NCBI GenBank assembly: GCA_964619625.1
Contig: CAZUFD010000001.1
Location: 59,316-123,315 of the forward strand
Direction of reading: 5' to 3'
From: an uncultured Gammaproteobacteria bacterium
GTDB taxonomy: Bacteria > Patescibacteriota > Patescibacteriia > Magasanikbacterales > GWA2-37-8
Length of the DNA stretch: 64,000 bases
The first letter of the stretch is position 1. Every line of letters begins with the position of its first letter. Both the position numbers and the translations under genes were made by a program. Of the stretch, positions 4,757-51,898 are shown one piece after another. The notes beneath the pieces are model-generated. The model was not told where the DNA came from, made no database searches, and worked only from the letters and a program-made list of their open reading frames with translations.

Positions 4757-4833
4757 GAAGTGAGTGAGCAAAGTAATTAAACTTGTTTTATTACTTTTGA
4801 GCGAACGAGAATATATGTGGCAAAGCCCATATA
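4757..4833 (+). repeat. Intergenic bipartite-hairpin repeat, copy A. An AT-rich hairpin, a GAGCGAACGAG spacer, then a TATATG-GGC/GCC-CATATA hairpin.
   Basis: Near-identical to 16464..16536 over about 73 nt. Related in reverse orientation to 9508..9590 and 13731..13812, and to 31741..31815. Confidence 0.7.
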
Positions 4834-4868
4834 ATAGTAACTAACTACTTTAATTTAAGAAAATACAT

Positions 4869-6098: not shown

Positions 6099-6132
6099 AT
6101 TCTGTATTCTTTATTCTAAATTCTAGCTAAAA

Positions 6133-6891: not shown

Positions 6892-6932
6892 ATATCTCGT
6901 TAGTTAATGTATAACGTATCGGCACGTATTGT

Positions 6933-7199
6933 ATGATTATTAATCTGCGTACATTATTGCATCTGCCGGTTTATACCGAATCTGGAACGAAACTCGGTAC
7001 GGTTTTTGATTTAGAAGTAGATGCCGAAGGGCATGCCATAATGAAGTATTTTGTTAAAGCGAATTTTTTAAGCGTAAAATATTTTCTGATTGAGAAAAGT
7101 TTGGTAAAAGAAATTAAAGAAGACAAAATAGTTGTATATGATAGCGTGGAAAGGGGCAGTTTGCTTGAAGCGCCGCCCAACATGGCTTTAGGCGAGTAA
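6933..7199 (+). CDS. Small hypothetical protein, possibly PRC-barrel-like
   Basis: ORF only. A weak resemblance to a PRC-barrel N-terminus (YTESGTKLGTVFDLEVD). Confidence 0.35.
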   Translation: MIINLRTLLHLPVYTESGTKLGTVFDLEVDAEGHAIMKYFVKANFLSVKYFLIEKSLVKEIKEDKIVVYDSVERGSLLEAPPNMALGE

Positions 7200-7203
7200 C
7201 TGT

Positions 7204-8139: not shown

Positions 8140-9410
8140 TTTTAAAAAAAGTACAAGATTGGACATTGCTTGCGTTTTTGTTTTTGTTGCCCTGGCAAAC
8201 AAGATATATTTGGCAGTATGGCGATTTAAACGGCGGATATTGGGAATATGGCACGGGCAGTCTTTATGCAACCGAGATTTTGTTGTGGGTTGTTTTAATT
8301 TTATTTTTTGTTAATAATTTTCTAAACAAAGAAGTTTGGACAAATTTATTTAAAAAGAAGAATATTTTTTCTTTGGCATTTACTGGATTTTTGGCTGCAG
8401 CAGGCACGTCAGTAATTTTGAGTGAAAATTTTGGTATATCATACAATTATATTTTTCGTATTTTGGAAGGCATGGCCATAATGACGGTGTTGGCGCGATT
8501 AGGGTGGAATAATAAATATATTTTTGCTATCTGGCTAGGTGCGGTAGGGCAGGGTATATTGGCAATGTATCAATTTTTAAATCAGAGTGTTTTTGCAAGC
8601 TCTTGGCTAGGCATGGCCGGGCAGGAGGCGTATAATTTAGGCCCAAGCGTGATAGAGTTTGCCGACCAAAGATGGCTGCGCGCGTATGGCAGTTTTGGTT
8701 CGCCAAATTCTTTGGGGATTTATTTGGCAGTATTATTTGTTTTAGGTTTTATTCTGTATTTTAAAACGCAAATACCGCGCTATAAAATTTTAATCAGCGT
8801 CGGTCAGTTGCTAGTTTTGTCTGGCTTGATTCTTTCTTTTTCTCGCGGAGCGTGGCTGTCCACTTTAGTTGGGCTTGTATCTTTGGCCGTTGTTTTATTT
8901 TTTAAACAAAAAGATTTTTTACGAGATTTTATTAAGCAGACAGCCTTTGCTTTGGCGGTTGTAGTTTTTTGGGTAGCAATTTTTTACCCGGTGTTTAATG
9001 CCCGTTTTAACTTACAAAACCGTTTGGAAGCAAAATCTGTTTCCGAAAGAAAAGGGCAGTATAGCGAATCTTTGTCTTTTATCAAATCAAATCCAATTTT
9101 TGGGGTTGGGCCGGGCGTATATACTTTTGCTTTGGCCAAAAAATATCCGGAGCTAGCTTTTTGGCAGCTGCAGCCGATACATAATATTTATTTGCTTCTT
9201 CTTGTAGAAATGGGCATATTTGGTATGTTGGCCATATTTTTATTGGCTATTAGTATTGCTAGATTGATAATTAAAACTAACTTAATTTACGCACCAGTTT
9301 TGGTTGTCTTGTTTACTTCTGGGATGCTAGATCACTGGTTGGTCAGCCTGTTTACAGGCATGGTTTTTTGGTGGGTAGTTTTGGGTTTAGGTCTAAAAAG
9401 AGACTCTTGA
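8115..9410 (+). CDS. O-antigen ligase/polymerase-like (Wzy_C family) polytopic membrane protein
   Basis: At least 10 predicted TM helices. Contains the conserved Wzy_C loop motif SFSRGAWLS. Confidence 0.6.
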   Translation: MEKQNFSLILKKVQDWTLLAFLFLLPWQTRYIWQYGDLNGGYWEYGTGSLYATEILLWVVLILFFVNNFLNKEVWTNLFKKKNIFSLAFTGFLAAAGTSVILSENFGISYNYIFRILEGMAIMTVLARLGWNNKYIFAIWLGAVGQGILAMYQFLNQSVFASSWLGMAGQEAYNLGPSVIEFADQRWLRAYGSFGSPNSLGIYLAVLFVLGFILYFKTQIPRYKILISVGQLLVLSGLILSFSRGAWLSTLVGLVSLAVVLFFKQKDFLRDFIKQTAFALAVVVFWVAIFYPVFNARFNLQNRLEAKSVSERKGQYSESLSFIKSNPIFGVGPGVYTFALAKKYPELAFWQLQPIHNIYLLLLVEMGIFGMLAIFLLAISIARLIIKTNLIYAPVLVVLFTSGMLDHWLVSLFTGMVFWWVVLGLGLKRDS

Positions 9411-36333: not shown

Positions 36334-37554
36334 TTATTTAATTTTAAAAGTTTTTAATACTTTCTTTAAAGCTTTTTCAGCCGTATCTATATCTTTTTTT
36401 GTATTATATATATAAAAACTCATGCGCGCGGTGCCATATACTCCCAGATAATTCATGAGCGGTTCAGCACAATGCAATCCGGAACGGATAGCTATGCCTT
36501 CGTTGTTAAATATCGTGGCAATGTCGTGCGGATGCACGCCGTCAATCGCAAAAGAGAGAACTCCACCGGCATCCTGAGGCTTGGAAGGAGAAAAAACTTT
36601 TACTTGCGGATAACGGCCCAGCATTTTTTTGGCATAGGCAAGTAGTTCTTGTTCGTGGGCCATAATTTTTTTAAATCCAATGTTGCTGAGATAATCTATA
36701 GCCGCGCCAAAGGCGATAACGCCCGCAATATTTGGCGTGCCGGCTTCAAATTTCCAAGGGCCGCTGCGATAGGTGGCAGATGTTGCTTTGACGGATTCTA
36801 CCATTTCGCCGCCATACATAAACGGCGTCATCTCTTCCATAAGAGATTGTTTTACATATAGTACGCCAACACCTGTCGGCCCAAGCATTTTGTGGGCGGA
36901 AAAAGCAAAAAAATCGCAATTTAAGTTACGGACATCGGTGGGCATATGTCCTACGCTTTGCGCGCCATCTACCATTACTTTGGCACCAACCGCATGCGCC
37001 AGAGCCGTCATTTTTTTAACCGGCACTATAGTCCCTGTTACATTAGATTGGGCAGTTAAGCAAACCAGTTTTGTTTTGGGTGTTAGCAGTTTCTTATACG
37101 CTTCTATATCTAAAGTATAATCGGCAGTTAAAGGAATGATATGTAAAACAGCCTGTTTATTTTTTGCCAGTTCTTGCCACGGCACTAAATTGGCATGGTG
37201 TTCTAAAGCGCTGACAATTATTTCGTCTCCGGCAGAAATATATTTCTGCCCCCAAGCCACAGCCGCGCAATTTATAGATTCAGTAGTATTTTTGGTAAAA
37301 ATTATCTCTTCTTCCGTACGCGCGCCAATAAAATCAGCAACCTTTTTTCTTACAGCTTCGTATTGTTCTGTTGCCTCTTCCGATAGTGCGTGGATACCGC
37401 GATGGATATTAGCGTTAGAAGTACTATAAAATTTTTCCAAAGATTTTAAAACAATTTTTGGTTTTTGGGTGGTGGAAGCATTATCAAGATAGACAAGAGG
37501 TTTGCCGTTGATTGTGCGTTTGAAGATAGGGAAGTCCTTTTTAATTTGCTGCAT
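36334..37554 (-). CDS. sufS: Cysteine desulfurase SufS (class V aminotransferase)
   Basis: The PLP-lysine region SAHKMLGPTGVG and the active-site region RSGLHCAEP. Start trimmed to MQQIKKDF to avoid an 80-nt overlap with sufD. Confidence 0.85.
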   Translation of the reverse strand: MQQIKKDFPIFKRTINGKPLVYLDNASTTQKPKIVLKSLEKFYSTSNANIHRGIHALSEEATEQYEAVRKKVADFIGARTEEEIIFTKNTTESINCAAVAWGQKYISAGDEIIVSALEHHANLVPWQELAKNKQAVLHIIPLTADYTLDIEAYKKLLTPKTKLVCLTAQSNVTGTIVPVKKMTALAHAVGAKVMVDGAQSVGHMPTDVRNLNCDFFAFSAHKMLGPTGVGVLYVKQSLMEEMTPFMYGGEMVESVKATSATYRSGPWKFEAGTPNIAGVIAFGAAIDYLSNIGFKKIMAHEQELLAYAKKMLGRYPQVKVFSPSKPQDAGGVLSFAIDGVHPHDIATIFNNEGIAIRSGLHCAEPLMNYLGVYGTARMSFYIYNTKKDIDTAEKALKKVLKTFKIK

Positions 37555-37558
37555 ACCT

Positions 37559-38281
37559 TTAACCAAGAAAATTATTAACCGCGGTACGAATAGTATCTTG
37601 AATCGTTGTGTCCGGTATATGTGCCAGTTCCGCTTCAAAAAATCCTTGCACTAAGAGTGATCTGGCGTGTGCTTCGGATAGTCCCCGCGAACAAAGATAA
37701 AATAAAGCTTCTTCGTCTATTTTCCCCACACTGGCGCTATGCCCGGCTTTTACGTCATCTGTTTTTATTTCCAAATTGGGCGAGGTTTTTGCCTTTGCCT
37801 CATCAGATAGTAATAGAGTGTGGTGAGAAAAATATGTATTCGCACCCCGTGCGTTTTTTTCAATCCGGCAATCTCCTTCAATGTGGCAGCTTGCCTGATC
37901 CGTGAGGCCGGCTCGGACCATGATTCTAATTTTAGTATGAGGAGCGCTGTGGCGAGCTTCTATCTTTGCTGAAAATGAATTGTTATTTTTTCCTAAGATG
38001 AAAAAAATACATTCGCATTTTGCTCCGCGTTCTTTGGCGTTAATAATAAAATTGTGCAAATCAGGCCAGCCTTCGGTGGCTAGACAAATCAAGGTTACAT
38101 CCGCATTTTTTTTCAAAGTAATCTGTCCGTGTGGAATTGTATTAAAAAAATACAAAGCCTGCCTGCCGCCGACAGTTAAAGATTTGGGAAATTTTGTCCC
38201 GATTTTGCTTTTGGCAAAATCGAGGATCCTCGATTCCGACTTTGAATCGGAATCGGGATAATTTAACTTTTTATTTTTCAT
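37559..38281 (-). CDS. sufD: Fe-S cluster assembly protein SufD (short form)
   Basis: A SufB/SufD beta-helix C-terminal region (HSASVGKIDEEALFYLCSRGLSEAHAR). Positioned between sufB and sufS. Confidence 0.6.
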   Translation of the reverse strand: MKNKKLNYPDSDSKSESRILDFAKSKIGTKFPKSLTVGGRQALYFFNTIPHGQITLKKNADVTLICLATEGWPDLHNFIINAKERGAKCECIFFILGKNNNSFSAKIEARHSAPHTKIRIMVRAGLTDQASCHIEGDCRIEKNARGANTYFSHHTLLLSDEAKAKTSPNLEIKTDDVKAGHSASVGKIDEEALFYLCSRGLSEAHARSLLVQGFFEAELAHIPDTTIQDTIRTAVNNFLG

Positions 38282-38287
38282 ATTAGT

Positions 38288-39706
38288 TTAACCAACTGAA
38301 CCGGTCATCTCCAAAGTAAGCAACCTGTTAAGTTCAACTGCGTATTCCATAGGAAGTTGCTTTACAATTGGGCTGGCAAATCCGTTTACAATAAGCGTGG
38401 CCGCTTGTTCCTCCGAAAGTCCGCGGCTCATGAGATAAAATAATTCATCTTCGCCAATACTGGCTACAGTCGCTTCATGGGCAATAGTTACGTCTTTTTC
38501 TTTAATATCCATGGTTGGATAGGTATCCGAACGGGAAGCCGGATCAAGCATGAGCGCATCACAAACCACGCGAGTTTTTACGTTTTTCGCTCCTTTAATT
38601 ACTTTTACCAAACCGCGGTAGGTAGTACGACCGCCATTTTTACTAATAGATTTGGAAATAATCGTAGAACTGGTATCCGGAGCCAAATGAATTGCTTTGC
38701 CGCCCGCGTCTTGGTGTTGGCCCTTACCCGCAAAGGCCAGAGACTGAATTTCTCCTTTAGCGCCTCGTTCACGCAAGATAACACTAGGGTATTTCATGGT
38801 TGCTTTTGAGCCTAAATTACAATCCAACCAAAACATATGGCCATTTTCATAGACAGATGCTCGTTTGGTAACCAGATTATATACGTTGCCGGACCAATTT
38901 TGAACCGTGGTATATTGCACGCGCGCGTTTTTTTTCACTACAATTTCTACAACAGCTGAATGCAGGGAATCGCTGGAGTAGGTTGGGGCAGTGCAGCCTT
39001 CCACATAATGTACCGAGCTGCCTTCATCGGCAATAATGAGCGTGCGTTCAAATTGCCCCATGTTTTTCATGTTGATGCGGAAGTAGGCTTGAAGGGGGAG
39101 TTCCACATGCACGCCCTTAGGCACGTAAATAAAACTTCCACCCGACCACACGGCCGAATTTAAAGCTGAAAATTTATTATCATGCGTAGGCACAACAGTG
39201 CCAAAATGTTTTTTAAATAATTCCGGATGGTTTTTGAGCGCGTCATCGGTTGATTCAAAAATAACTCCCTGTTTGGCTAGGTTTTCAGCCAGGGAATGAT
39301 AAATCATCTCCGATTCAAATTGAGCGCCGCTGCCGGATAAAAATTTTTGTTCAGCTTGCGGTACGCCTAATTTATCAAATGTATTTTTAATTTCAGCCGG
39401 CACATCTTCCCAATTGCGTTTGGTTTGGTCTTGGGGGCGAACGTAGTAGTGAATATTATCAAAGTCAATCTTAGACAAATCCGCGCCCCAACTTGGCATA
39501 TGTTTTTCCAAAAATATTTCGTATGCCTTTAAACGAAAATCCAACATCCATTCGGGTTCGGATTTTTGGCGAGAAATTTCTTTGATTATTTCCGGTGTTA
39601 GTCCTTTTTTGGCGGTAAAAACACTAGCTGTTTTGGTACGAAAACCGGGGGCATATTTATTGCCGGTTTTGTTAATCAGCTTTTTTGTTTTTACGGGAAT
39701 TGGCAT
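38288..39706 (-). CDS. sufB: Fe-S cluster assembly protein SufB
   Basis: 472 aa with the conserved SufB C-terminus ([26 protein letters not shown]). Confidence 0.9.
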
Positions 39707-39715
39707 AGGCAGTTG

Positions 39716-39900
39716 TTGTCATTCCGATCGAAGGAGTTTAGCGACTGAGTGGAGGAATCTCTGTCATCCCCCTCTGCCCGAGAGGGGGTAGGGGGAGTGG
39801 GAGTTGACAACTTTGGCAACTCCCTCTCGCTCCCTCTTGGTAAGAGGGAGATTACCGGACAGAGATCCCTCGTCGGCCAAAAGGCCTCGCTCGGGATGAC
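39716..39900. repeat. GC-rich 185-nt long imperfect palindrome / multi-hairpin element in the sufC-sufB intergenic region
   Basis: GTCATCCC at 39763-39770 pairs with GGGATGAC at 39893-39900, and GGAATCTCTGTC pairs with GACAGAGATCC. Internal hairpins are CCCCTCT-gcccg-AGAGGGG, GGGAGTTG...CAACTCCC and TCCCTCTT-ggt-AAGAGGGA. GC is about 58% against an AT-rich surround. Confidence 0.6.
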
Positions 39901-39912
39901 AAAATAAATTGT

Positions 39913-40671
39913 TTATTTCTTTATAAAAGACTCAAATCCGTCTTTTTCTATCTTTTTCAAAATTTCCGTGCCGCCGCTAGCAACAATTTTACCTTTGGAC
40001 ATAATATGAATTTTATCGGGTTTGATAAAATCTAAAACGCGAGGATTGTGACTGACGATTACAAGACCCATTTTTTGTTTTTTATGAATCGTATTAATTT
40101 GTTTGCTGACAATTTTCAGCGCGTCTATGTCTAGCCCTGAATCAATTTCATCTAGGAAGGCAAAAGCCGGCTGTAGCATTGCCATTTGCAACACCTCGGA
40201 TTTCTTTTTTTCTCCGCCGGAAAATCCGTCATTTATAGAGCGAGACATAAACGCAGGATCAATATTTAGCTTATTCATTTCTTCCCGCATCAGGCCGGCA
40301 AATTGAGCCGGAGCCATAGCCGGTTTTTTATTTTTTTGAGCAGCATGAATCGTATTTTTTGCGAGGCGCAAAAAATTTCCCAAAGCTACTCCGGCTACGA
40401 CTTGCGGATGTTGGAAAGCTAAAAATAATCCGGCCTGGGCGCGTTCGGACGGGGAAAGACCAAGAAGATTTTTTTTATCCAGTTTGGCCGAACCCATAGT
40501 GACGGTATATTTAGGGCTGCCCATCAGGACGGATAGAAGAGTGCTTTTTCCCGACCCATTCTGACCCATAATAATGTGAATTTCACCGGAAGAAACGCTA
40601 AAAGAAACGCCATTTAAGATTTTGGTGTTACCAACCGTGGCATGGAGGTTTTTTATCGTTAGATTAGGCAT
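39913..40671 (-). CDS. sufC: Fe-S cluster assembly ATPase SufC
   Basis: ABC ATPase with Walker A GQNGSGKST. The N-terminus (MPNLTIKNLHATV) and the 252-aa size are typical of SufC. Confidence 0.9.
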   Translation of the reverse strand: MPNLTIKNLHATVGNTKILNGVSFSVSSGEIHIIMGQNGSGKSTLLSVLMGSPKYTVTMGSAKLDKKNLLGLSPSERAQAGLFLAFQHPQVVAGVALGNFLRLAKNTIHAAQKNKKPAMAPAQFAGLMREEMNKLNIDPAFMSRSINDGFSGGEKKKSEVLQMAMLQPAFAFLDEIDSGLDIDALKIVSKQINTIHKKQKMGLVIVSHNPRVLDFIKPDKIHIMSKGKIVASGGTEILKKIEKDGFESFIKK

Positions 40672-41660: not shown

Positions 41661-42044
41661 TTATTTTTCATAAATTTCAATCGGTAACCCATCGGAATCT
41701 CTAAAGAACGCAAATTTTTTATTTGTAATCTCATCCACCCGTACTTCTTCGGTTTCAACACCTCTATCATTCAAATCCTTAACCGTCTTTTCAATTGAGT
41801 CTACTTCAAAAGCCAAATGTCGCAATCCGCAAGCTTCAGGGTTGGAAATTCTAGTTGGGGGATTGGGGAATGAAAAAAGTTCAATTTGCGATCCGGCAAT
41901 ACTAATGTCCAGTTTATACGAATTACGTTCGGCTCGGTATGTTTCTTTAATGATGCTGCCGCCCAATATATCCGTATAAAAAGATTTTGATTTTTGGTAA
42001 TCAGAGCAGATAATGGCAACATGATGAACCTTATTAAATTTCAT
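41661..42044 (-). CDS. VOC-family protein (glyoxalase/bleomycin-resistance fold)
   Basis: 127 aa. N-terminus HHVAIICSDYQKSKSFY and the paired beta-alpha-beta-beta-beta module pattern typical of VOC proteins. Confidence 0.65.
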   Translation of the reverse strand: MKFNKVHHVAIICSDYQKSKSFYTDILGGSIIKETYRAERNSYKLDISIAGSQIELFSFPNPPTRISNPEACGLRHLAFEVDSIEKTVKDLNDRGVETEEVRVDEITNKKFAFFRDSDGLPIEIYEK

Positions 42045-42046
42045 AA

Positions 42047-44407
42047 TTATGGCGTTTTTATCACATGCCTAATCTTATACTGACTCAGCGCTCCAATATG
42101 GTTCAAATCATCAATGCCAATCTTGCCAATATACAAGTACTTTATTTTTTCCACAGCATTGTCTTTTAAGTATTCTTCCACAGCCTGCAAGCCTCTAAAA
42201 TAAATCGTGTCGCGGGTAAACGCTATTTTTTTGTTTGTATCTGCCAGGCCGCGCTTAACTTTTACGCAGGTGCGCCAGGCCGACTCGTCTCCCAGCCCGT
42301 AATTACTTTTTAAATAATGAAATAAATCTACAAATGACATTTCTTGCGCCAAATACGCGCCGATAGACCGCAGCGGCGCCCAAATTTCTTTTTCTCCAAG
42401 CGGCACGCCCAAAGCGTGTTGATTGTATACAGCCAACCCCTCTTCAGTAGCAATGTATCCGGCAGTGCCGACTTCAAACAGTTTATATTTTTGCAAGCGG
42501 CTGTTTTCAGCCCTATAAATATGTGTTTCAATTTCGTGCGCAATCACTGCTTTAAGTCGGTTTTCGGTAAATGTCACTCCTTCCCGCAGAAATATTGTGC
42601 CGGCCAGACTTATTGAAATATCGTTTACGCGCCCCGCGGCTATCTTTATATGCCAATTGGTTAGTTTGTGTTCTTCCAAAAATAGCGTGAGCCGTTTTAC
42701 AATCTGTTTGAAGCTTAGTTTGGCGCTGTCATCGGGCTGAATCGGATGTTCGTGAATATAGCGGACGGCTTGATCGTATAGTACGCGACTGGCTGGGCCA
42801 TATAACTTTTCCGAAGCTTGCTGCAATTTTGGAGTATCCAATGATTCCAATAAATCTAATTTTGTTTCTATTTCAACTATTTTCTTTTTATATAGATTAT
42901 ATAACGGATGGTTAAGCGCTTCGGGTAGAGCCTTTAGGTCTTTTTTAATTTGAGCAATAGGCAAAGAATGGGCGCGGTATAAAAATTGAGGCGAGCGAAC
43001 GGGATTTTCTAGAAACGTTTGTTTTTCTTCATCGTGGTTTAACGGCCGCAGCAATCCGGCGATGGTAATTTTTTTATCTATTTCGTATAATTTTTTATCA
43101 ATATTTTTTAGAATTTTTTCCGTTCGTTCACTATCAATTTTTGGACTTTGATAGGGCAGATGTTTGTTGAGCGTGCTATGAATTGTAAAATGTTCAAGAA
43201 ACTTGCCGCCAATAACCGCTTTATATGTTTGATTTTCTAAGTTGCCAAAGGTGGCGGGAATGGTAAGCCGTTTGCCTTTTAATTTAATATCAATAAAGGA
43301 ATCCTCGGTTTCAATGTCGCTCAGACTGCGGTCAAGCAGAACGCCGTCATAATGCGGATCAATTTTTGCGAGGATGTGGTCGTACTTGGTATTTAATAAT
43401 TCTATATGTTCAAATAATCCGATTGCCGTACGGCTGGGAGCGCTTTCTTTTGTTTCTGCCGGCACATTAGAGCTGAAAAGCGCTTTGCATAGCTCAACAC
43501 CCTTTTCAGGACTTGGAACTTTCAGATCCGCCACTTTTTTTAATCGCGCGCGCAGCGGAATTTGGCTGGCAATTTGAATAGAGAGGCCGGCTCGAGCATT
43601 AAGCTCCAATATTTTTATACCGTTTGTGGTAAGCGCCAAATCCGCGGCTAAAAATCCAATTTGACTGACTTTTTGCGCGTTAGCGGCAGCCAAAAGAATT
43701 TTGTCCCATTCAGGAATTTCTAAATCAGATAATTTTTCTCCGTTAGGCAAGGTGCGAATAAATTTTCCTTTGTGAACCGCATAGGCGGCGCTGCCAGTCG
43801 CAATATCAATGCCTATACCAACCGCCCCTAAATGTAAATTTGCTTTGCCCTGCGACTGTTCCGTAGGTAGGCGCAGCATGGCTAGGACCGGAATATAATT
43901 AAATACAATAATTCGGATATCGGGCAAACCTTGCTTAACGTATGGTTTAAAAAAATCATGAGCCATAAGCCGTTCTTCAATAATTGCTTGATCATATAAA
44001 CCCGATATGGCATATTCTCCGTCTAAGATAGAAGAGACATGCCGGCTAATATCTTGCCAACTATGCTCCTGGCCGCTAATATCTATAAAATTACCGCCTT
44101 TTTTTTCTACAAATACCATAATGCCTTCGCCGCCATACCCATGGTTTGGTTTGATTACGAAATTATCAGGCAGGCTTTTAGGATTAAAATGTTTGAGTTC
44201 GTTATAATTTTTAATTACGGTATATACTTTGGCCGCGCCCAGCCCTCGTGACTGCAAATAATTTTTGGTAAACATTTTATCATCAGCAAAACTTTTATTG
44301 GCTTTGGAATTAAATCTGCTGATATACAAAAGATTGCGCGCGTTAATGCCGAGCACGCCGGATAATCGTTCAAAAAAAGATAATTTGTACTGATGGGATA
44401 GCGCCAT
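42047..44407 (-). CDS. Fusion of an ATP-grasp ligase (alpha-L-glutamate-ligase-like/ATPgrasp_ST-like) with a DUF1704 'QEGLA-motif' HExxH putative zinc peptidase
   Basis: N-terminal GINARNLLYI...KPNHGYGGEGI...ILELNARAG is an ATP-grasp signature. The C-terminus has an HExxH (VIAHEIETHIY) followed by TAGYIATEEGLAVYNQ, the QEGLA-type motif. Confidence 0.6.
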   Translation of the reverse strand: MALSHQYKLSFFERLSGVLGINARNLLYISRFNSKANKSFADDKMFTKNYLQSRGLGAAKVYTVIKNYNELKHFNPKSLPDNFVIKPNHGYGGEGIMVFVEKKGGNFIDISGQEHSWQDISRHVSSILDGEYAISGLYDQAIIEERLMAHDFFKPYVKQGLPDIRIIVFNYIPVLAMLRLPTEQSQGKANLHLGAVGIGIDIATGSAAYAVHKGKFIRTLPNGEKLSDLEIPEWDKILLAAANAQKVSQIGFLAADLALTTNGIKILELNARAGLSIQIASQIPLRARLKKVADLKVPSPEKGVELCKALFSSNVPAETKESAPSRTAIGLFEHIELLNTKYDHILAKIDPHYDGVLLDRSLSDIETEDSFIDIKLKGKRLTIPATFGNLENQTYKAVIGGKFLEHFTIHSTLNKHLPYQSPKIDSERTEKILKNIDKKLYEIDKKITIAGLLRPLNHDEEKQTFLENPVRSPQFLYRAHSLPIAQIKKDLKALPEALNHPLYNLYKKKIVEIETKLDLLESLDTPKLQQASEKLYGPASRVLYDQAVRYIHEHPIQPDDSAKLSFKQIVKRLTLFLEEHKLTNWHIKIAAGRVNDISISLAGTIFLREGVTFTENRLKAVIAHEIETHIYRAENSRLQKYKLFEVGTAGYIATEEGLAVYNQHALGVPLGEKEIWAPLRSIGAYLAQEMSFVDLFHYLKSNYGLGDESAWRTCVKVKRGLADTNKKIAFTRDTIYFRGLQAVEEYLKDNAVEKIKYLYIGKIGIDDLNHIGALSQYKIRHVIKTP

Positions 44408-44409
44408 AC

Positions 44410-45942
44410 CTATTCTTGATGTTCGGTAAGCAGGCTTCTAAATCGGAAATATTCGGCTATGCGTAAGCCGGTGAATTTGCCCAAGAGAAGTGTGGCTATA
44501 ACCGGCACAAGTACCAGTTCGGGCCATGATAGTAATACGTTATTAAAGTAAGCCCAAGTAATAAGATAGTAGGAAGCAATAACAATAAGAAGCGTGCCGG
44601 CTACGGCTACAATCGCGCTGCGAACACCCTCTTCGTTTTGCGCGGCCATAAATTTTTCCGAAACGGTTGACATCACAAGCATTGGGAATATGGCCATAGA
44701 AAGCGGCACGGAGGTGCCGTATTGCAAGGCCAGCCAAATTACAAATAAAAATGAGAGACTGATCAAAGCTAAATGGAGAGCCATTTTTGGCAGGTACAAT
44801 AATTCAAATTTGTTCAAAATAAATTTGGCAATATAGCCGATTACCACCGCGAAAATAAAGGTAAGAATGCCAAGGCCTAAACCGAGGATAAAGAATGAAA
44901 TGGCAATGATGACCGGGGTATAGACGCCAAACGCGCTAATGCCAATGACTTGTCTGGCAAACGAAGCAATGAAGGCTAGAAATGGCACGATAAGAATGAT
45001 ATATACAATATTGGAAGAGACGCCTTTGGAAACCAGGTCAGTCACAAAGTGAGAAAGAAGAAAGACTGATGATTTATCACCGCGCTGGTCTATAATTCTA
45101 TATTCAATACTCCGACTTTGGAGAGTGCCGGCTATCTGGTCTGTCTCTTTGGTGATAAAAATAGGATTAATCGCTTCTTTGCGAGTGAGGAGAATATAAC
45201 TTGGCTCCACCAAATTAAACGTTTGATAAGCTAGGTTGGAAATAGTGTTTAGGTCGCTGTCGGAGATAACGGCAAAAAATTTATTTTTAATGATGGTTTT
45301 ATCTTCTGGTTTTAAATCTTTCCAGTACAGATTAAACGCCTGCATGCCAAGCGGTGATTGGGTGTAAAAAATCAACACATTTGAATCTTTGATATAGTCT
45401 GTGTTTTCTTTTATTTTCTGTACCAGAGCATCTTCGGTAAGAAGCGCGCCTTCCTTTTCGGCTATAGGCAGGAGCTGCAAAGCGACGCCGTTTTCGGCGG
45501 CTTGGGTTTTTAAATTCTCAATTTCTTTTTCGCTTTTTTGATCAATAATAAGCAAGGCGCTACTATTAAAAACAAAAATGTCTTTGCTTATGCTGGCGGT
45601 TGAGGTAGCTTGGCGAATGGTAAGCGTGATAGTTTTTTTTCCTACGGTTGAGAATTGCTGCACGATTTCTTTGCCCGTCACCTTGGGGCCGCTGCCAAAA
45701 TCCCAAACATATTCCGCAGGGGTGGTAGAAGATAATAGAATTGAATCAGAAGCGTCAAAGATAGCTTTTTTATTTATGCGCACCAGGTCATCGGAAGTAA
45801 TTATGGCTTCAAGTTGTTTAGCTGGCTGCAGAGGCAGCGGAGCGGGGGAGGTTGCCACGGTTTGGGCATGTATAGAAGACGGGATTGTAGTTGCCAGTAG
45901 AAAATAAAGAATAGAATATAGTGATACTATTTTTTTCTTCAT
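44410..45942 (-). CDS. Signal peptide, a roughly 290-aa extracytoplasmic domain and a 7-TM C-terminal region. Possibly the '7TM fused to inactive transglutaminase-like domain' family.
   Basis: Start is 3 nt after the stop of the ATP-grasp/peptidase gene. Seven predicted TM helices in the C-terminal 220 aa. The family assignment comes from architecture and neighbourhood only. Confidence 0.5.
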   Translation of the reverse strand: MKKKIVSLYSILYFLLATTIPSSIHAQTVATSPAPLPLQPAKQLEAIITSDDLVRINKKAIFDASDSILLSSTTPAEYVWDFGSGPKVTGKEIVQQFSTVGKKTITLTIRQATSTASISKDIFVFNSSALLIIDQKSEKEIENLKTQAAENGVALQLLPIAEKEGALLTEDALVQKIKENTDYIKDSNVLIFYTQSPLGMQAFNLYWKDLKPEDKTIIKNKFFAVISDSDLNTISNLAYQTFNLVEPSYILLTRKEAINPIFITKETDQIAGTLQSRSIEYRIIDQRGDKSSVFLLSHFVTDLVSKGVSSNIVYIILIVPFLAFIASFARQVIGISAFGVYTPVIIAISFFILGLGLGILTFIFAVVIGYIAKFILNKFELLYLPKMALHLALISLSFLFVIWLALQYGTSVPLSMAIFPMLVMSTVSEKFMAAQNEEGVRSAIVAVAGTLLIVIASYYLITWAYFNNVLLSWPELVLVPVIATLLLGKFTGLRIAEYFRFRSLLTEHQE

Positions 45943-46071
45943 AGTATATAGTATTGATTTTAGAAACTTACTATATCATAGGAAAGCGGCCGAGACAATA
46001 AAATTGACAAAATGATTCCGTAGGATTACTGTTATTATTGATTCTTTTTATGTTTTAAACAAGTAAAACGT

Positions 46072-47007
46072 ATGAAAAAACTTGCTATATATTTTTCCGA
46101 TCCCGAACCGATGGGCTACCCGTTTAATTCCAAGTATCCTTATTGGGAAATTTATCAAGGCATTATTAAAGATATAGAAGCGCAAGGGCATAGCGTGTAT
46201 GTTGTTCGCGGTAATTCATACCTCGGCAAGGGCGTATTTTCACATGGCTGGCGAGTTGTTGGCGGTGTGATGGTGCCGGTAGCCGAGCCGATTACCGTAG
46301 ATTTAATTTTTAACCGCGATGACAAAAATACCATTCCCGCAATTTACGATTGCCCGATCATAAATCATCCGGATTTGGATAGATTATGCGTAGACAAGGT
46401 TGAGACCGCAAAATTTTTTCCCGAGCTTTCGCCCAAAACTAAAGCCATTAATTCATACCAGGAATATTTGGATGCAATTAAGGAGTGGGGTTTTGGTCCG
46501 GAAGAAAAGATTGTTTTAAAAAAGAATTTTTTATCCGGCGGCCGCGGCATTTATATTCGTCCGATAAAAGAGGTTGCCGAATCATTGTATGATGACTGGA
46601 AAGATATTCTTGTTCAAGAATTTGTAGACAATTCCATTGGAATTCCGGAAATAATTGAAGGTTTGCACGATATTCGCGTAGTAACTATTAACGGCGAACC
46701 GGTGTATACGTTTGTGCGCGTACCCCCAGCTGGATCATTTTTAGCCAATGTTTCCCAGGGCGGCACCGAGATACCGTTAAGTTTAAGCAAGCTTCCGAAC
46801 AATTTGTTGAAATTGGTTGAAGAAATAAATAAAAAGCTGTCTCATTATAGGCCGAGTATGTTTGCTTCGGACTTTGTTAATTCTAAAAATGGATTTAAGT
46901 TGGTAGAGCTTAATTCTCGCCCAGCTGTCTGCATCCCTTCACTTTCTTCGGAAACCAAAAATTATATTGATAAGATTGTGCAGCTCCTTGTACAAGAGCT
47001 GTCCTAA
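46072..47007 (+). CDS. RimK-like ATP-grasp ligase, tandem paralog 1
   Basis: GGRGIYIRP...VQEFV...HDIRVVTINGEPV...ANVSQGG...ELNSRPAV ATP-grasp motifs. Confidence 0.6.
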   Translation: MKKLAIYFSDPEPMGYPFNSKYPYWEIYQGIIKDIEAQGHSVYVVRGNSYLGKGVFSHGWRVVGGVMVPVAEPITVDLIFNRDDKNTIPAIYDCPIINHPDLDRLCVDKVETAKFFPELSPKTKAINSYQEYLDAIKEWGFGPEEKIVLKKNFLSGGRGIYIRPIKEVAESLYDDWKDILVQEFVDNSIGIPEIIEGLHDIRVVTINGEPVYTFVRVPPAGSFLANVSQGGTEIPLSLSKLPNNLLKLVEEINKKLSHYRPSMFASDFVNSKNGFKLVELNSRPAVCIPSLSSETKNYIDKIVQLLVQELS

Positions 47008-47028
47008 AATTATTTGCTTGCTTAACCC

Positions 47029-47992
47029 TATGAAAAAACTCGCTATTTATTTTTCCAATCCCAAACCAATGGGCGATCCGTTTGATTTGCGATATCCATA
47101 TTGGCAGATTTATAAAGAAATAATTAGAAACGTGGAAAAACAGGGGATAGATGTATATGTTACCAGGGCTAAAGATTCGTATTTGGGTAAAGGTGTTTTT
47201 ACCCATGGTTGGAAAGTAGACGGGGAAGAATTGATAGAAATAAATGAGCCAATTACCGTAGATTTAATTTTTCATCGCGGCAGTCAAGCCACCATTCCCG
47301 CGACCTATGATTGTCCAATCATAAACCATCCGGATCTGGAGCGATTTTGCGGAGATAAGATAAAAGTAAACCAGGTATTTGCCGATATTTCTCCCAAAAC
47401 CAAAGCTGTTAATTCATACCAAGAATACCTGGATACCATTACAGAATGGAATTTTAATCCTGAAGACAAGATTGTCGTAAAGAAGAATTTTCTCTACGGC
47501 GGGCACGGAGTATATATTCGTCCGATAAAAGAAATTACCGAATCGCTTTATGAAAATTGGCGCGATGTTCTAATGCAAGAATTCGTTGATAGTTCGGGGG
47601 GTATTGCCGGGATTGTTGAGGGCTTGCATGATATACGCGTAGTAACTATTAACGGCGAGCCAGTATATTCGTTTGTGCGGACTCCTCCCGTTGGATCGTT
47701 TTTAGCCAATGTTTCCCAAGGAGGCGCGGAAAAGGCAGTGCCACTTTCCCAATTACCCGCGGAATTACTAAAATTAGTTGAAAGAGTAAATAAGGAATTA
47801 GCGCAATACAGGCCCAGCATCTTTGCTTCCGATTTTTTCAATTCCAAAGACGGTTTTAAATTGATTGAATTAAATTCCCGTCCGGCTGTGTGCGACCCAG
47901 CCCAATCTCCGGAAACCAGAAATTATATTGATAAAATTATCCAATTACTCGTACATACCATCAATAATTCTTTTAAAATTGAGAAAAATTAA
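47029..47992 (+). CDS. RimK-like ATP-grasp ligase, tandem paralog 2
   Basis: Start set at the MKKLAIYFSNPKPMG that matches paralog 1. The two align along their full length (roughly 60% identity by eye). Confidence 0.6.
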
Positions 47993-48324: not shown

Positions 48325-48500
48325 AAGTATTTCCTTCGGTGTCTAGATAATATCCTTGCCAAGCCATACCTTCTATGGCAAATTTTGGCATAGCCACCAC
48401 ACCGCCTGCGTCGCAGAACATCGCTCCGGCGTTCGAATCCCTATGTGACCAAAGCAGTTTGGTCACATTTATATCTTATTCGCTACACTTCGTTTCGCTG

Positions 48501-48585
48501 CGGAGAGGGAGGGATTCGAACCCTCGGTGCCTTGCGGCACACAGCTTTAGCAAAGCTGCACAATCGACCACTCTGACACCTCTCC
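48501..48585 (-). tRNA. tRNA-Ser (anticodon GCU), type II with a long variable arm
   Basis: Acceptor GGAGAGG/CCTCTCC. Anticodon arm CAGCT-TTGCTAA-AGCTG. Variable-arm hairpin GTGCC-gcaa-GGCAC. T arm GAGGG-TTCGAAT-CCCTC. Discriminator G, and no CCA encoded. Confidence 0.8.
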
Positions 48586-48638
48586 AGGTGTTGGCTTTTA
48601 AATACCAAAGATTATATATTTTTGCTTAAAATAGGGAT

Positions 48639-49022: not shown

Positions 49023-49112
49023 TGGCGGAGAGATAGAGATTCGAACTCTAGAGGCCCTTGCGGGCCCGGCAGTTTAGTAAACTGCTGCCTTAAACCACTC
49101 GGCCATCTCTCC
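49023..49112 (-). tRNA. Type II tRNA, Ser-like, with encoded CCA. The anticodon reads as ACU.
   Basis: Acceptor GGAGAGA/TCTCTCC. Ser-type D arm GCC-GAGTGGTTTAA-GGC. Anticodon arm GCAGT-TTACTAA-ACTGC. Variable-arm hairpin GGCCC-gcaa-GGGCC. T arm TAGAG-TTCGAAT-CTCTA. Discriminator G followed by CCA. Confidence 0.7.
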
Positions 49113-49217: not shown

Positions 49218-50159
49218 ATGCATAAAGCTCTCAGGTTTCTTCTTAATACTATTTTAGCCACAATTATAATCGGTGGTTTTGTTTATTTTTTCCGTGCACC
49301 AATACGACATTCGTTAACTCAAATTCAAACGGAATATTTTCCTTGCCGCCAGCCGATTGCCTATAGCCTCGGTTCTTTTGATGAAAAATTTGGTATTTCC
49401 CAAAAAGATTTCCTAAGCGCCATTAGCGCCGCTGAACAAGTGTGGGAAGATCCGATTAGTAAAGACTTGTTCGCGTATAAGGAAGATGGGGGCTTAAAAA
49501 TAAACCTTATTTACGACAATCGTCAGGAAGCAACTGTAAAACTGCAGGAATTAGGTTTGAGCGTCAAAGATGATAGAGATTCGTATGAAGCCGTGAAGGC
49601 GAAATACGACGCCATGAAAGCCAGCTATCTTAAAGACAAGGCGGTGCTTGCTAACACAATTGCGGAATTTGAAGTTATGAAACGCAAATATGAAGCAGAC
49701 GTGGAATATTGGAACAGCCGAGGCGGCGCGCGCAAAGAAGCCTACGATAAATTGGAAGAAGACAGGCTGGCTTTAAACGCTAAAATTGATCAGATTAATC
49801 AAATGCAAAATAATTTGAACGCTAAGGTAAATAATATAAACGCGCTTGTCACGGTGCTTAACCGATTGGCTGCCTCGCTCAATATTACCGTAGATAAATA
49901 TAACCAAATTGGCGGAGAGTTGGGCGCAGAATTTGAAGAGGGTACATATCGTAGTGATCAAAGCGGTCAAGCTATAGATATTTATCAGTTTGATAATCGG
50001 GCCAAATTAATCCGAGTGCTAGCGCATGAACTTGGTCATGCGCTAGGTTTGGAACATGTGGAAGATGCGAAAGCTATAATGTATAGCTTTAATAATGGAA
50101 TTAATGATAAGCCTACAGACAGCGATCTGTCAGCGCTTAAGATGCTTTGTAATATTTAG
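49218..50159 (+). CDS. Membrane-anchored zinc metallopeptidase of the metzincin/matrixin type with a central coiled-coil
   Basis: N-terminal TM helix and a C-terminal HELGHALGLEH (HExxHxxGxxH) motif. Confidence 0.6.
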   Translation: MHKALRFLLNTILATIIIGGFVYFFRAPIRHSLTQIQTEYFPCRQPIAYSLGSFDEKFGISQKDFLSAISAAEQVWEDPISKDLFAYKEDGGLKINLIYDNRQEATVKLQELGLSVKDDRDSYEAVKAKYDAMKASYLKDKAVLANTIAEFEVMKRKYEADVEYWNSRGGARKEAYDKLEEDRLALNAKIDQINQMQNNLNAKVNNINALVTVLNRLAASLNITVDKYNQIGGELGAEFEEGTYRSDQSGQAIDIYQFDNRAKLIRVLAHELGHALGLEHVEDAKAIMYSFNNGINDKPTDSDLSALKMLCNI

Positions 50160-50270: not shown

Positions 50271-50951
50271 ATGATAAAACTAAGCGGCGTTACTAAAATT
50301 TATCCTACCGGCACCCCGGCCGTACGAAATCTAAACTTGCATATAGGTGCGGGTGATTTTGTGTCCATTGTGGGCCAGAGCGGTACGGGCAAAACAACGC
50401 TTGTAAAAATGCTGATTGCCGAAGAAAGACCCAATAAAGGCACGATAGAAATCGGCGATACGGATATTACCAAGATTAGTTCCAGTGATATTCCGTATTT
50501 GCGCCGGCAAATTGGCGTAGTTTTTCAGGATTATAAATTATTACCAAAGAGAACCGTATACGAAAATGTGGCTTTTGCTTTGGAAGTGGCCGGAGAAAAA
50601 AGAGATCGTATTCACCAGGTGGTGCCTCAAGTGCTAGAAATTGTAAATTTATCTCATAAAGCCAGCAGCTATCCGCCGCAATTATCCGGTGGCGAACAGC
50701 AGCGCACGGCTATTGCCAGATCGCTCGTGCACCGCCCAAAAATTATGATTGCCGATGAGCCGACCGGAAACTTGGATTCCATCAATACCGAAGAAATTAT
50801 TTCTATTTTAAAAAAAATAAATGAGTTTGGCACGACGATTATTTTGGTTACGCACAATCGCGAAGTGGTAAATCATTTGCGCCGCCGCGTTGTTACCATG
50901 CATGGCGGAGAGATAATCAGCGATGAACATGACGGTAAATACAAATTATAA
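50271..50951 (+). CDS. ftsE: Cell-division ABC ATPase FtsE
   Basis: Walker A GQSGTGKTT, signature LSGGEQQR, Walker B IMIADEPTG. Followed by ftsX. Confidence 0.9.
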   Translation: MIKLSGVTKIYPTGTPAVRNLNLHIGAGDFVSIVGQSGTGKTTLVKMLIAEERPNKGTIEIGDTDITKISSSDIPYLRRQIGVVFQDYKLLPKRTVYENVAFALEVAGEKRDRIHQVVPQVLEIVNLSHKASSYPPQLSGGEQQRTAIARSLVHRPKIMIADEPTGNLDSINTEEIISILKKINEFGTTIILVTHNREVVNHLRRRVVTMHGGEIISDEHDGKYKL

Positions 50952-50989: not shown

Positions 50990-51898
50990 ATGCTATCTTT
51001 TTTTAGAGTTTTAAAGTTCGCGCTCCAGGATTTGTGGCGAAATATCAGCTTGTCTTTCATGACGGTTTTTATTTTGGTTTTGATGCTGCTTTCCGTAAAC
51101 ACGCTGTGGTCTTTAGATGTACTAACCAAACAAGCCGTGGAAGCGGTAAAAAAACAAATTGATGTCAGCATATATTTTGTGCCGGAAGCCACGGAAAAAA
51201 ACGTGACTGAAATTAAAAATTATGTCATGCTGTTTCCCGAAGTAACGGATGTGCGAGTACAGACAAAGGAACAGGTGCTTGCCGATTTTCGCGAGAAACA
51301 TAAAAATCAAAAAGAAGCCTTGGAAGCGCTGGATGAACTTGGCGCCAATCCGTTTGGCCCGACCATGATTATAAAAACTAAAGAACCGAAGGACTATAAA
51401 AAAATCATAGATGCTTTAAACGTGCCGGAATACGAAAGTATTATTGAAGCCAAGAGCTTTGATAATCACGAAGAAGTCATTACGCGATTACAAAATATCA
51501 CTAACCGTATTGAACGAGTTGGTTTTGGCCTAACCATTTTATTTGCCTTGATTTCTTTCCTGATTATCTTTAATACTATTCGCGTGGCTATTGCTACCCA
51601 AAAGGTTGAAATTGGTATCAAGAGACTTGTGGGAGCCAGCAATTGGTTTATTCGCGGGCCATATTTGGTTGAATCGGTGATTTTTACCATTATTAGTGTT
51701 TCCTGCACGATTGGACTCGTATACCTTGCTCTACGTTGGATAGATCCGTATTTAGCGGTGATTTTGCCTAATGGATTCTCCTTGACAAATTACTTCTATT
51801 CTAATATGCTGATGCTGTTTGGAGCGCAAGCTCTGGCAGTACTTCTTCTTACAATGCTGTCCAGCCTTTTGGCTATGCGCAAACAGTTGAAAGTCTAA
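50990..51898 (+). CDS. ftsX: Cell-division permease FtsX
   Basis: One N-terminal TM helix, a periplasmic domain, then three C-terminal TM helices. The position after ftsE is typical. Confidence 0.85.
   Translation: MLSFFRVLKFALQDLWRNISLSFMTVFILVLMLLSVNTLWSLDVLTKQAVEAVKKQIDVSIYFVPEATEKNVTEIKNYVMLFPEVTDVRVQTKEQVLADFREKHKNQKEALEALDELGANPFGPTMIIKTKEPKDYKKIIDALNVPEYESIIEAKSFDNHEEVITRLQNITNRIERVGFGLTILFALISFLIIFNTIRVAIATQKVEIGIKRLVGASNWFIRGPYLVESVIFTIISVSCTIGLVYLALRWIDPYLAVILPNGFSLTNYFYSNMLMLFGAQALAVLLLTMLSSLLAMRKQLKV

Follow-up and report, generated by a model that had tools for sequence, protein, structure and literature searches.

This work describes a two-gene core module, a seven-transmembrane (7TM) protein followed by a three-domain fusion protein, that is conserved across Patescibacteria and that, together with two accessory ligase genes, occupies positions 42047-47992 of the 64,000-nt stretch of DNA analyzed here (the window). 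We propose that it is a Patescibacteria form of the Rim/Rlo systems, anchored in the membrane, that "writes and erases" the C-terminal tail of a protein, and we consider this reading about evenly poised between right and wrong. It builds on what was observed: the identity of the domains, the conservation of catalytic residues, the linkage of the genes, and a tail that varies together with the type of peptidase. The features of the module are as follows.

44410..45942, minus strand: 7TM membrane protein gene, 510 aa, with signal peptide, PKD domain, alpha/beta ectodomain, seven TM helices, and a predicted cytoplasmic C-terminal tail (profile matches and AF2 model)
45865..45942, minus strand: signal peptide, aa 1-26 (...SSIHA/Q), read from the sequence; a hydrophobic N-terminal helix in the model
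45592..45801, minus strand: PKD domain of the 7TM protein, aa 48-117, predicted extracellular
45088..45564, minus strand: flavodoxin-like alpha/beta ectodomain, aa 127-285, at the place where RloB has its "inactive transglutaminase" domain
44431..45018, minus strand: 7TM_transglut domain, aa 309-504 (Pfam PF14402, 2.1e-32)
44437-44469, minus strand: near-invariant juxtamembrane motif GLRIAEYFRFR, predicted cytoplasmic, within the 7TM_transglut domain
44413..44430, minus strand: C-terminal tail LTEHQE, its terminal Glu being the proposed acceptor and recognition site (comparison of homologue tails)
42047..44407, minus strand: three-domain fusion protein gene, 786 aa (profile matches, homologues, and AF2 model)
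43532..44338, minus strand: ATP-grasp ligase domain of the fusion, aa 24-292, RloC/TIGR02291-like (Pfam ATPgrasp_ST, 1.1e-57)
43172..43435, minus strand: degenerate RimB/RloA-type retropepsin domain, aa 325-412, with catalytic D-T-G changed to D-P-H (AKIDPH at 43352-43369)
42080..43099, minus strand: MATCAP (DUF1704/QEGLA) zinc carboxypeptidase domain, aa 437-776 (HEIETH at 42521-42538; EEGLA at 42431-42445)
45943..46071, no strand: divergent intergenic region of 129 bp between the core operon and the accessory ligases
46072..47007, plus strand: accessory RimK-like ATP-grasp ligase a, 311 aa, divergent from the core operon (Pfam/NCBIfam profiles)
47030..47992, plus strand: accessory RimK-like ATP-grasp ligase b, 320 aa counted from ATG 47030, tandem paralogue of a (Pfam/NCBIfam profiles)

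An ORF check recovered all four ORFs at the coordinates given in a preliminary description of this DNA, and the translational adjacency claimed there for the 7TM and fusion genes was borne out by a spacer of 2 nt between the 7TM stop codon and the fusion ATG. The family assignments made in that description (ATPgrasp_ST, MATCAP/DUF1704, 7TM_transglut, and RimK) were likewise upheld by an HMM check using Pfam and NCBIfam profile searches. The 7TM gene lies directly 5' of the fusion gene in 10/10 close genome loci, and the same order was found in Buchananbacteria, Kerfeldbacteria, and other contigs (48 loci overall); the exception is a fusion at locus L013 without an adjacent 7TM gene. A single-protein scan of genome contigs retrieved close relatives only, and distant contexts were gathered by a contig search and a metagenome scan. 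Pattern design relied on a 10-sequence alignment, since one of 36 sequences was too diverse for it. The divergent intergenic region presumably carries the promoters. One extended -10-like site was located there, at 45998-45970 on the minus strand, in a scan that was not enriched over shuffles, and promoter and terminator predictions were no better than those for shuffles.

For the fusion protein, the ligase domain matched ATPgrasp_ST (PF14397) with 195.8 bits against a cutoff of 31.4. It also matched TIGR02291 (3.4e-77), with a score of 259.5 that falls below the equivalog cutoff of 314.2, and we therefore assign the ligase to the ATPgrasp_ST family and not to the equivalog. The C-terminal part has the MATCAP fold: PF08014 (MATCAP, formerly DUF1704) matched aa 471-776 (1.5e-41) with 143 bits against a cutoff of 27, and TIGR02421 ("QEGLA") matched at 4.1e-49 with a score of 167.8, below its equivalog cutoff of 338.65. 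The nucleotide- and Mg-binding residues of the ATP-grasp domain are conserved, and these residues and HExxH...EEG are invariant in 37 homologues with 45 to 85% identity. The HEIETH (aa 624-629) and EEGLA (aa 655-659) motifs have aligned counterparts in human MATCAP (HEIGTH and EEGLA) and make up a complete gluzincin-type site composed of HExxH and the downstream Glu of (Q/E)EGLA. Judged by these residues, both the ATP-grasp and MATCAP domains look active. The AF2 model of the fusion has a pLDDT of 85.5, and its inter-domain geometry is unreliable (pTM 0.51).

Between the two enzymes lies a domain with a retropepsin-like fold and homology to RimB/RloA (PF05618), in which the catalytic Asp-Thr/Ser-Gly is missing and AKIDPH stands in its place. 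This motif is degenerate in 46/48 fusions with MATCAP, and every partner lacking MATCAP keeps it intact, a pattern that suggests one active peptidase per system, either retropepsin or MATCAP; as a variant of the Rim/Rlo ligase-peptidase systems, the module uses MATCAP in place of the retropepsin. The preliminary description had recognized the ATP-grasp and HExxH/QEGLA domains correctly but took the protein for a two-domain fusion. Its view of the ligase-peptidase fusion as an unusual elaboration gives way to that of a standard Patescibacteria architecture, as the best-scoring clusters listed (at least 120, with 44 to 100% identity) are all full-length fusions.

The membrane protein matched 7TM_transglut with 113 bits against a cutoff of 25, in agreement with the signal peptide and seven TM helices described for it earlier, and its AF2 model has a pLDDT of 80.9. 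G492, L493, R494, E497, and F501 are invariant in the homologue alignment, and K and R are restricted to the predicted cytoplasmic loops. By this predicted topology, the C-terminal tail is cytoplasmic, on the same side of the membrane as the fusion enzymes. The label "inactive transglutaminase-fused" did not survive: a Pfam search of the window 7TM protein gave no match to the inactive transglutaminase domain (PF14400), and the ectodomain consists of the PKD and flavodoxin-like domains, a replacement that the first reading had missed. The NCBIfam model for RloB (NF052267) scored 71 on this protein against a cutoff of 900.

What singles out the tail is its relation to the peptidase. The 7TM protein ends in Glu in 48/48 loci in which its gene is followed by one for an ATP-grasp::MATCAP fusion (-EE in 44, -QE in 4), compared to only 2/30 loci that lack MATCAP and in which the ATP-grasp partner either carries an active retropepsin itself or is accompanied by a separate RloA. 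Among dereplicated MATCAP-linked homologues (n = 46), position -1 is always E (46/46), and at position -2, 42 have E and 4 have Q; entropy is 0 bits at -1, 0.43 at -2, and about 3 at -3 to -10, so that constraint does not extend beyond the two terminal residues. Tails of the retropepsin class show no comparable constraint at the final two positions. The association of tail with peptidase class has an uncorrected Fisher p of 3.6e-19, and this covariation is not phylogenetically independent, with a neighbor-joining tree needing just ~2 partner switches and ~4 tail changes. The whole family numbers about 1,500 members. As background, of 267 mechanical ORFs in the window, 14 have a terminal E, whereas a terminal EE is absent. 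No alternative -EE-ending ORF that might serve as a substrate was found nearby in the window, nor were any -EE-ending neighbors found in the proteobacterial QEGLA loci. The conserved -EE terminus, a candidate substrate, had escaped the first reading.

By analogy with known tail-modifying enzymes, the cytoplasmic -EE tail would be the substrate, which the ligase extends and MATCAP trims. Some -EE-tailed 7TM genes (L037 and L083) lie without a ligase within 5 kb. Moreover, the retropepsin-class tails and the one Aeromonas RloB tail examined are basic or varied, not acidic; the tail is therefore no obvious acceptor for the same ligase family in that sister class, and the rule that the tail is the substrate is not general across the family. 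Such nonacidic tails are in keeping with an alternative in which the ligase or ligases make a free acidic oligo- or polypeptide (e.g., poly-alpha-Glu) that the 7TM protein exports or anchors and whose length MATCAP sets or which it recycles, with -EE mimicking the product, for docking or autoinhibition, and not acting as an acceptor. RimK makes free poly-alpha-glutamate besides modifying ribosomal protein S6, and arrays of one to three extra ligases would suit stepwise peptide synthesis. In Pseudomonas, RloA is periplasmic, so that some RloC product has to exert its effect across the membrane, and free polyglutamate was considered by the authors of that study (PMC12239564). However, all catalytic domains encoded in the window are predicted to be cytoplasmic and fused, and an exported product is therefore not needed; the TM bundle has no solved homologue and no transporter-like match. 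Taken alone, the alternative also leaves unexplained why the last two residues are fixed, and only in company with a carboxypeptidase. We regard it as unlikely.

A second alternative places the module in cell wall precursor editing: on the inner side of the membrane, the ligases would extend a peptidoglycan precursor (stem peptide or cross-bridge) with amino acids, the carboxypeptidase would trim these, and the 7TM protein would serve as a scaffold or flippase-like partner. It draws on the class A PBP gene that lies co-directionally downstream in 15 of ~30 retropepsin-class loci and on the cell-shape defects, beta-lactam sensitivity, and hypo-osmotic lysis of rlo mutants (PMC12239564). We find it improbable, since a PBP neighbor occurs in 0/48 MATCAP-class loci, the nearest structural relatives of the fusion ligase act on protein C termini and not on nucleotide precursors, and the -EE tail is again left unexplained.

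The accessory ligases a and b are paralogues with 68% identity, as expected from the tandem pair of RimK-type genes described earlier. Both match RimK and GSH-S ATP-grasp models above Pfam cutoffs (RimK PF08443, 34 and 36.5 bits against a cutoff of 21) and score about 40 bits on TIGR00768, below its cutoff of 143.4; no S6 gene is present within the window. Ligase b most likely starts at ATG 47030 and not at TTG 46967 of the mechanical ORF call. Using purpose-built HMM and phmmer searches for linked genes, we found one to three stand-alone ATP-grasp genes flanking the core in 17/78 loci with a classifiable partner, in several lineages. It is nonetheless conceivable, if somewhat doubtful, that the tandem ligases stand outside the system as ordinary neighbors (glutamyl ligases for a cofactor or of the S6 type, for instance) whose adjacency reflects synteny within a single Magasanikbacteria clade. 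The exact divergent adjacency is limited to relatives whose fusion is at least 70% identical and is absent from L008 and L009, and orthologues also occur unlinked, between uvrC and uvrA (including on the contig of L008) and inside a suf operon. Against mere neighborhood stands the tightness of the linkage, with gaps to the core of 0 to 9 nt in L026, L030, L046, and L052, and the fact that it recurs with both peptidase classes, in varied gene orders, and in several lineages unrelated to one another. The RimK-like pair is a facultative addition to the module; the earlier grouping of such ligases with it is supported by this recurrence, though their orthologues are also found in unrelated contexts.

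In the write-and-erase reading that we prefer, the 7TM protein, with its ectodomain outside and its C terminus inside, would present a short -Glu(-Glu) tail after the GLRxxEYxRFR helix. The fusion protein, translated from the adjacent gene, would dock at this tail, and its ATP-grasp domain would use ATP to ligate one or more amino acids to the terminal carboxylate. The added residue is most likely L-Glu, given the analogy to RimK and to the Rlo/Rim peptidases, which cleave polyglutamate. The MATCAP domain would then trim added residues back to the encoded -EE. The middle retropepsin domain may be a mere relic, or it may bind acidic tails as an adaptor. In loci that have them, stand-alone RimK-like ligases might lengthen or diversify the tail. 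Tail length could set the activity of the 7TM protein, and the Pseudomonas rlo phenotypes point to a possible output in cell envelope or osmotic homeostasis. A further point against this model is that a ligase fused to its own eraser would run a futile ATP cycle unless regulated. The preliminary notion of a ligase and a peptidase that add and remove amino acid tails fits all results obtained here. Another, highly improbable alternative is that the tail Glu serves as a covalent handle that is loaded with an amino acid (cf. LysX/ArgX on LysW), which is processed while tethered and released by a metallopeptidase. In the AAA lysine pathway, LysW likewise ends in Glu, and the metallopeptidase LysK releases the product. 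However, no kinase, reductase, or aminotransferase is conserved beside the module, and a 7TM protein would be an odd carrier.

If correct, the write-and-erase reading would be the first to propose a function for any bacterial MATCAP/DUF1704 protein and would give the first bacterial membrane protein target of C-terminal amino acid ligation. The variant supplies a specific candidate for the substrate of Rlo-type systems, the C-terminal -EE of the 7TM partner, and it offers a natural experiment in which tail type switches along with peptidase type. We further suggest, tentatively and with less than even confidence, a bacterial "tail code": ATP-grasp ligases would reversibly lengthen the tubulin-like -EE of the 7TM partner, the Rlo-type substrate in this reading, MATCAP would trim it again, and the eukaryotic TTL/TTLL-MATCAP pairing would descend from this coupled prokaryotic writer and eraser. 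The machinery for tubulin tyrosination and glutamylation in eukaryotes would then be connected to an already coupled prokaryotic system. Should the tail not be the substrate, the work still describes a widespread Patescibacteria variant of a known system.

The closest known system is RloABC of Pseudomonas aeruginosa, for which genetics and protease biochemistry have been published, so that the module type is no longer wholly "experimentally uncharacterized," as first described (PMC12239564). There, ligase and 7TM protein act together genetically and are opposed by the peptidase, in that deletion of either the 7TM or the ligase gene suppresses peptidase loss; RloA cleaves polyglutamate, the physiological substrate of Rlo systems is an acknowledged open question, and Pseudomonas Rlo systems affect osmotic tolerance, antibiotic resistance, and biofilm (PMC12239564). 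The window shares with RloABC a 7TM_transglut protein directly followed by an ATPgrasp_ST (TIGR02291-like) ligase, plus a RimB/RloA-fold peptidase. It differs in that the active peptidase is a MATCAP zinc carboxypeptidase, which is cytoplasmic because it is fused to the ligase, whereas the retropepsin is fused and catalytically dead; no separate secreted RloA retropepsin gene is present at the window locus, the sole retropepsin domain being internal to the cytoplasmic fusion. The one proteobacterial 7TM locus inspected, from Aeromonas (L018), has the rloABC arrangement of 7TM protein, ATP-grasp ligase, and secreted retropepsin; its RloB carries PF14400 where the window protein has PKD and alpha/beta domains, and its tail ends in ...GKDK, unlike the -EE of the MATCAP class. 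The Patescibacteria sister class with ATPgrasp_ST::RimB-like fusions (e.g., L019, L020, and L047) resembles the window module in gene order (7TM gene, then ligase fusion), in the family of its 7TM protein, in the juxtamembrane motif, and in the extra ATP-grasp ligases that may accompany it in arrays, but it has an active K(I/V)DTG retropepsin, no MATCAP, tails not terminated by E, and often a class A PBP gene next. The proteobacterial QEGLA (TIGR02421) loci also encode MATCAP beside an ATP-grasp ligase; in the two loci inspected, however, the adjoining ligase is GshB-like, MATCAP is fused to or beside an FGase-type amidohydrolase, and no 7TM gene lies nearby. As such, the conserved triad of ligase, QEGLA protein, and 7TM protein put forward earlier was not found outside the Patescibacteria fusions in these two QEGLA loci and the Aeromonas 7TM locus.

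RimK and RimB act on S6, and TTL/TTLL ligases and MATCAP act on tubulin tails. Compared to the RimK-RimB/S6 pair, the window ligase belongs to another ATP-grasp subfamily, the eraser is a metallocarboxypeptidase in one polypeptide with the ligase, and the proposed target is a membrane protein. A literature search returned no report of carboxypeptidase activity on acidic tails for a bacterial MATCAP member and no paper tying MATCAP to bacterial ATP-grasp ligases or 7TM proteins. Among eukaryotes, the MATCAP/TMCP family acts on the acidic -EE(Y) tails of tubulin, stripping the C-terminal Tyr and Glu, and deglutamylates as well; the human and Tetrahymena enzymes have carboxypeptidase activity on acidic C-terminal tails (PMC10499314). 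The window module has the same two enzyme folds as the tubulin cycle of TTL/TTLL and MATCAP (TMCP1/2), and an acidic C-terminal -EE tail, but it is bacterial, its enzymes are fused, and its proposed substrate is a 7TM protein.

The four genes that the preliminary description placed in this region are real and not chance ORFs, since all four have many full-length homologues; for the fusion and 7TM proteins, homologues are 28-100% identical. The closest relatives belong to Candidatus Magasanikbacteria and other Patescibacteria. The genes are as follows:

44410-45942, minus strand: 7TM protein, 510 aa, with a signal peptide, a PKD domain (aa 48-117), an alpha/beta domain (~160 aa) and a C-terminal 7TM_transglut domain (PF14402, 2.1e-32)
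42047-44407, minus strand: fusion protein, 786 aa, beginning 2 nt past the 7TM stop codon
46072-47007, plus strand: RimK/GshB-like ATP-grasp protein a, divergent from the core
47030-47992, plus strand: RimK/GshB-like ATP-grasp protein b, divergent from the core

The fusion protein matches ATPgrasp_ST (1.1e-57) and MATCAP (formerly DUF1704 in Pfam; 1.5e-41), as well as TIGR02291 (3.4e-77) and TIGR02421 "QEGLA" (4.1e-49), scoring under the equivalog cut-offs of both TIGR models. Across 37 homologues, the ATP-grasp residues K86, D256, E268, N270 and R272 are invariant, as are the zinc site H624-E625-x-x-H629 and E655-E656-G657; the HEIGTH and EEGLA motifs of human MATCAP align with HEIETH and EEGLA of the fusion. 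The ATP-grasp domain matches the ligases ArgX/LysX (17.8, 14.8), whose target is the C-terminal Glu of LysW, and RimK (14.5), whose target is that of S6. The MATCAP domain matches human MATCAP (15.4 over 277 residues). The middle beta domain, not identified by sequence alone, matches PA0462, a periplasmic aspartic peptidase of P. aeruginosa (12.0), and DUF785 (11.3). In other Patescibacteria, sister proteins join ATPgrasp_ST to a RimB-like PF05618 domain, which a profile built from the fusion's middle domain matches with 96.7% probability (E 3.6e-10). Because of this match, and because the sisters' catalytic K-I-D-T-G is K-I-D-P-H in this fusion, the protein is taken to consist of a ligase, a dead retropepsin and a MATCAP peptidase.

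The order 7TM gene to fusion gene is found in 10/10 close genome loci, in Buchananbacteria (where the 7TM protein has only 269 aa and no ectodomain), in Kerfeldbacteria and in one further MAG. Including a metagenome scan, the pair occurs in 48 loci; metagenome-locus ORFs were called mechanically, and the top-80 selection was ordered by similarity to the window protein. Each of the 120 top-scoring clusters listed, clustered at 90% identity, is a full-length fusion (44-100% identity). The fusion had been considered an unusual elaboration; given that the pair is conserved across loci, it is instead the normal architecture of this Patescibacteria group. No ligase lies in the 5 kb downstream of two -EE-tailed 7TM genes (L037, L083), and no 7TM gene adjoins a Peregrinibacteria ATP-grasp::MATCAP fusion (L013), so some genomes can carry the two genes unlinked. 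A glyoxalase/VOC-family gene (41661-42044, minus strand) begins 2 nt past the fusion stop codon and looks co-transcribed. It probably lies outside the module, as the adjacency is retained only in one 98% identical locus (L001).

Among Patescibacteria-type partners without MATCAP, the D-T/S-G retropepsin motif is kept in 29/29; the retropepsin is mostly fused, and is a separate small ORF in two loci. In Aeromonas, RloA is encoded separately and secreted. Of the MATCAP fusions, 46/48 have a degenerate motif. The other two, L021 (7557-9950) and L099, carry intact-looking motifs (KIDTG, KMDSG) and may be intermediates in which both peptidases are active. This distribution suggests that MATCAP has taken the place of the retropepsin in a Rim/Rlo-type system, with one peptidase per system. 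A gene for a class A PBP (both transglycosylase and transpeptidase) comes after the 7TM/ATP-grasp::retropepsin module, in the same direction, in 15 of ~30 retropepsin-class loci (listed with PBP: L019, L020, L045, L047, L052, L053, L057, L064, L067, L072-L076, L079 and L095) and in 0/48 MATCAP-class loci.

Almost all of 35 aligned PKD-7TM homologues end in -EE, -QE or -EEE. A set of 78 loci was sorted by the domains of the downstream ligase, using self-built HMMs and motif inspection. The 7TM protein ends in E in all 48 loci with a downstream ATP-grasp::MATCAP (one terminal E in 4, two in 34, three in 9 and four in 1), versus 2 of the 30 with an ATP-grasp lacking MATCAP (Fisher p = 3.6e-19, uncorrected, from cases that are not independent, since 2 switches of partner and 4 of tail type suffice on a neighbour-joining 7TM-domain tree built without the tail). 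MATCAP-linked 7TM proteins form two deep groups in this tree. After dereplication, all 46 MATCAP-linked tails have E at position -1, and at position -2 they have E (42) or Q (4); from -3 to -10 they vary (~3 bits) as much as any retropepsin-class tail position. As window background, 14/267 mechanical ORFs end in E and 0 in EE. The pattern shows strong purifying selection on exactly the last two residues, only with a carboxypeptidase partner, and this holds despite the non-independence caveat. The tail directly follows GLRxxEYxRFR, the most conserved motif of the 7TM family, and the C-terminus is predicted to be cytoplasmic by hydropathy, the positive-inside rule and a model.

At the -EE end of S6, RimK extends and RimB trims. 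On -EE(Y) tubulin tails, MATCAP/TMCP enzymes strip off the C-terminal Tyr and Glu, and they also deglutamylate (PMC10499314). In the P. aeruginosa rloABC operon, deleting rloB (7TM) or rloC (ligase) suppresses loss of the RloA peptidases, which cleave polyglutamate (PMC12239564). Taking the three systems together, the best-supported reading, to which we give an even chance, makes the 7TM tail the substrate, which the ATP-grasp domain would extend, probably with Glu, and MATCAP would trim back to the encoded -EE. Its main weakness is that retropepsin-class tails are basic or varied, so the 7TM tail may not be what this ligase family uses in that class. This leaves room for models built on a free peptide or export, which we consider unlikely, on a peptidoglycan precursor, which is distinctly improbable, or on a LysW-like carrier, which is barely credible.

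The two RimK-like proteins share 68% identity. Two copies adjoin the core in L001-L003, one in L005-L007 and none in L008 and L009, and the exact tandem arrangement is limited to the closest clade; orthologues elsewhere lie between uvrC and uvrA or within a suf operon. That in this window they are unrelated neighbours, as these placements would allow, is nevertheless somewhat unlikely, because stand-alone ATP-grasp genes adjoin the core in 17/78 classifiable loci, in both peptidase classes, several lineages and varied gene orders: upstream and co-directional with gaps of 3-9 nt (L026, L030), downstream of the fusion (L022, L024), or behind the ATP-grasp::retropepsin gene as an array of one to three (L046, L047, L052, L053). 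We conclude from these gene neighbourhoods that the tandem pair are putative facultative accessory ligases. On a Peregrinibacteria JGI contig (P0265), an orthologue sits inside the suf operon directly after SufC; the window's own suf Fe-S assembly operon (SufS, SufD-like, SufB, SufC; 36334-40671, minus strand) lies ~1.4 kb beyond the fusion gene. Contamination or transfer is suggested by a RimK-like protein (P0233) that carries the label Paucibacter sp. and shares 68% identity with the window's. Seven MAG contigs titled "uncultured Gammaproteobacteria" (L002-L006, L009, L010) are probably mislabelled, since they have gene order and proteins of 60-80% identity in common with Magasanikbacteria.

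Beyond the tandem ligases lie:

48500-48585 and 49023-49112, minus strand: two neighbouring tRNA-Ser genes (ARAGORN), one with anticodon ACT (unusual A34), the other GCT
49218-50159, plus strand: protein with a long coiled coil and, at its C-terminus, an M10-like HExxH zinc peptidase, directly upstream of ftsE
50271-50951, plus strand: ftsE
50990-51898, plus strand: ftsX

A mechanically called ORF (48375-48629) that overlaps the tRNA gene at 48500-48585 is probably spurious. The peptidase-ftsE-ftsX layout recalls EnvC/PcsB-type FtsEX-controlled cell-wall hydrolases, but with a metallopeptidase.

The proposed triad of ligase, QEGLA protein and 7TM protein holds in the fused Patescibacteria form and fails in the two proteobacterial QEGLA loci inspected, where a GshB-like ligase and an FGase domain stand beside the QEGLA protein and no 7TM gene was found; it thus appears to be realised as such mainly in the fused form. 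In the proteobacterial loci L014 (Roseateles, 4394-8156) and L015 (Photobacterium, 4053-7047), MATCAP/QEGLA is fused to or beside an N-formylglutamate-amidohydrolase-type domain and has a GshB-like ATP-grasp as its partner. Low salinity strongly induces a related gene pair in Photobacterium. The searchable literature yielded no account of the dead retropepsin, the -EE tail covariation or the switch in peptidase type. The locus is not a strict RloABC system, because it lacks a transglutaminase ectodomain and a secreted RloA and its 7TM protein scores far under the RloB model cut-off. By analogy, it would work like the Rim/Rlo systems and the TTL/TTLL-MATCAP cycle of tubulin.
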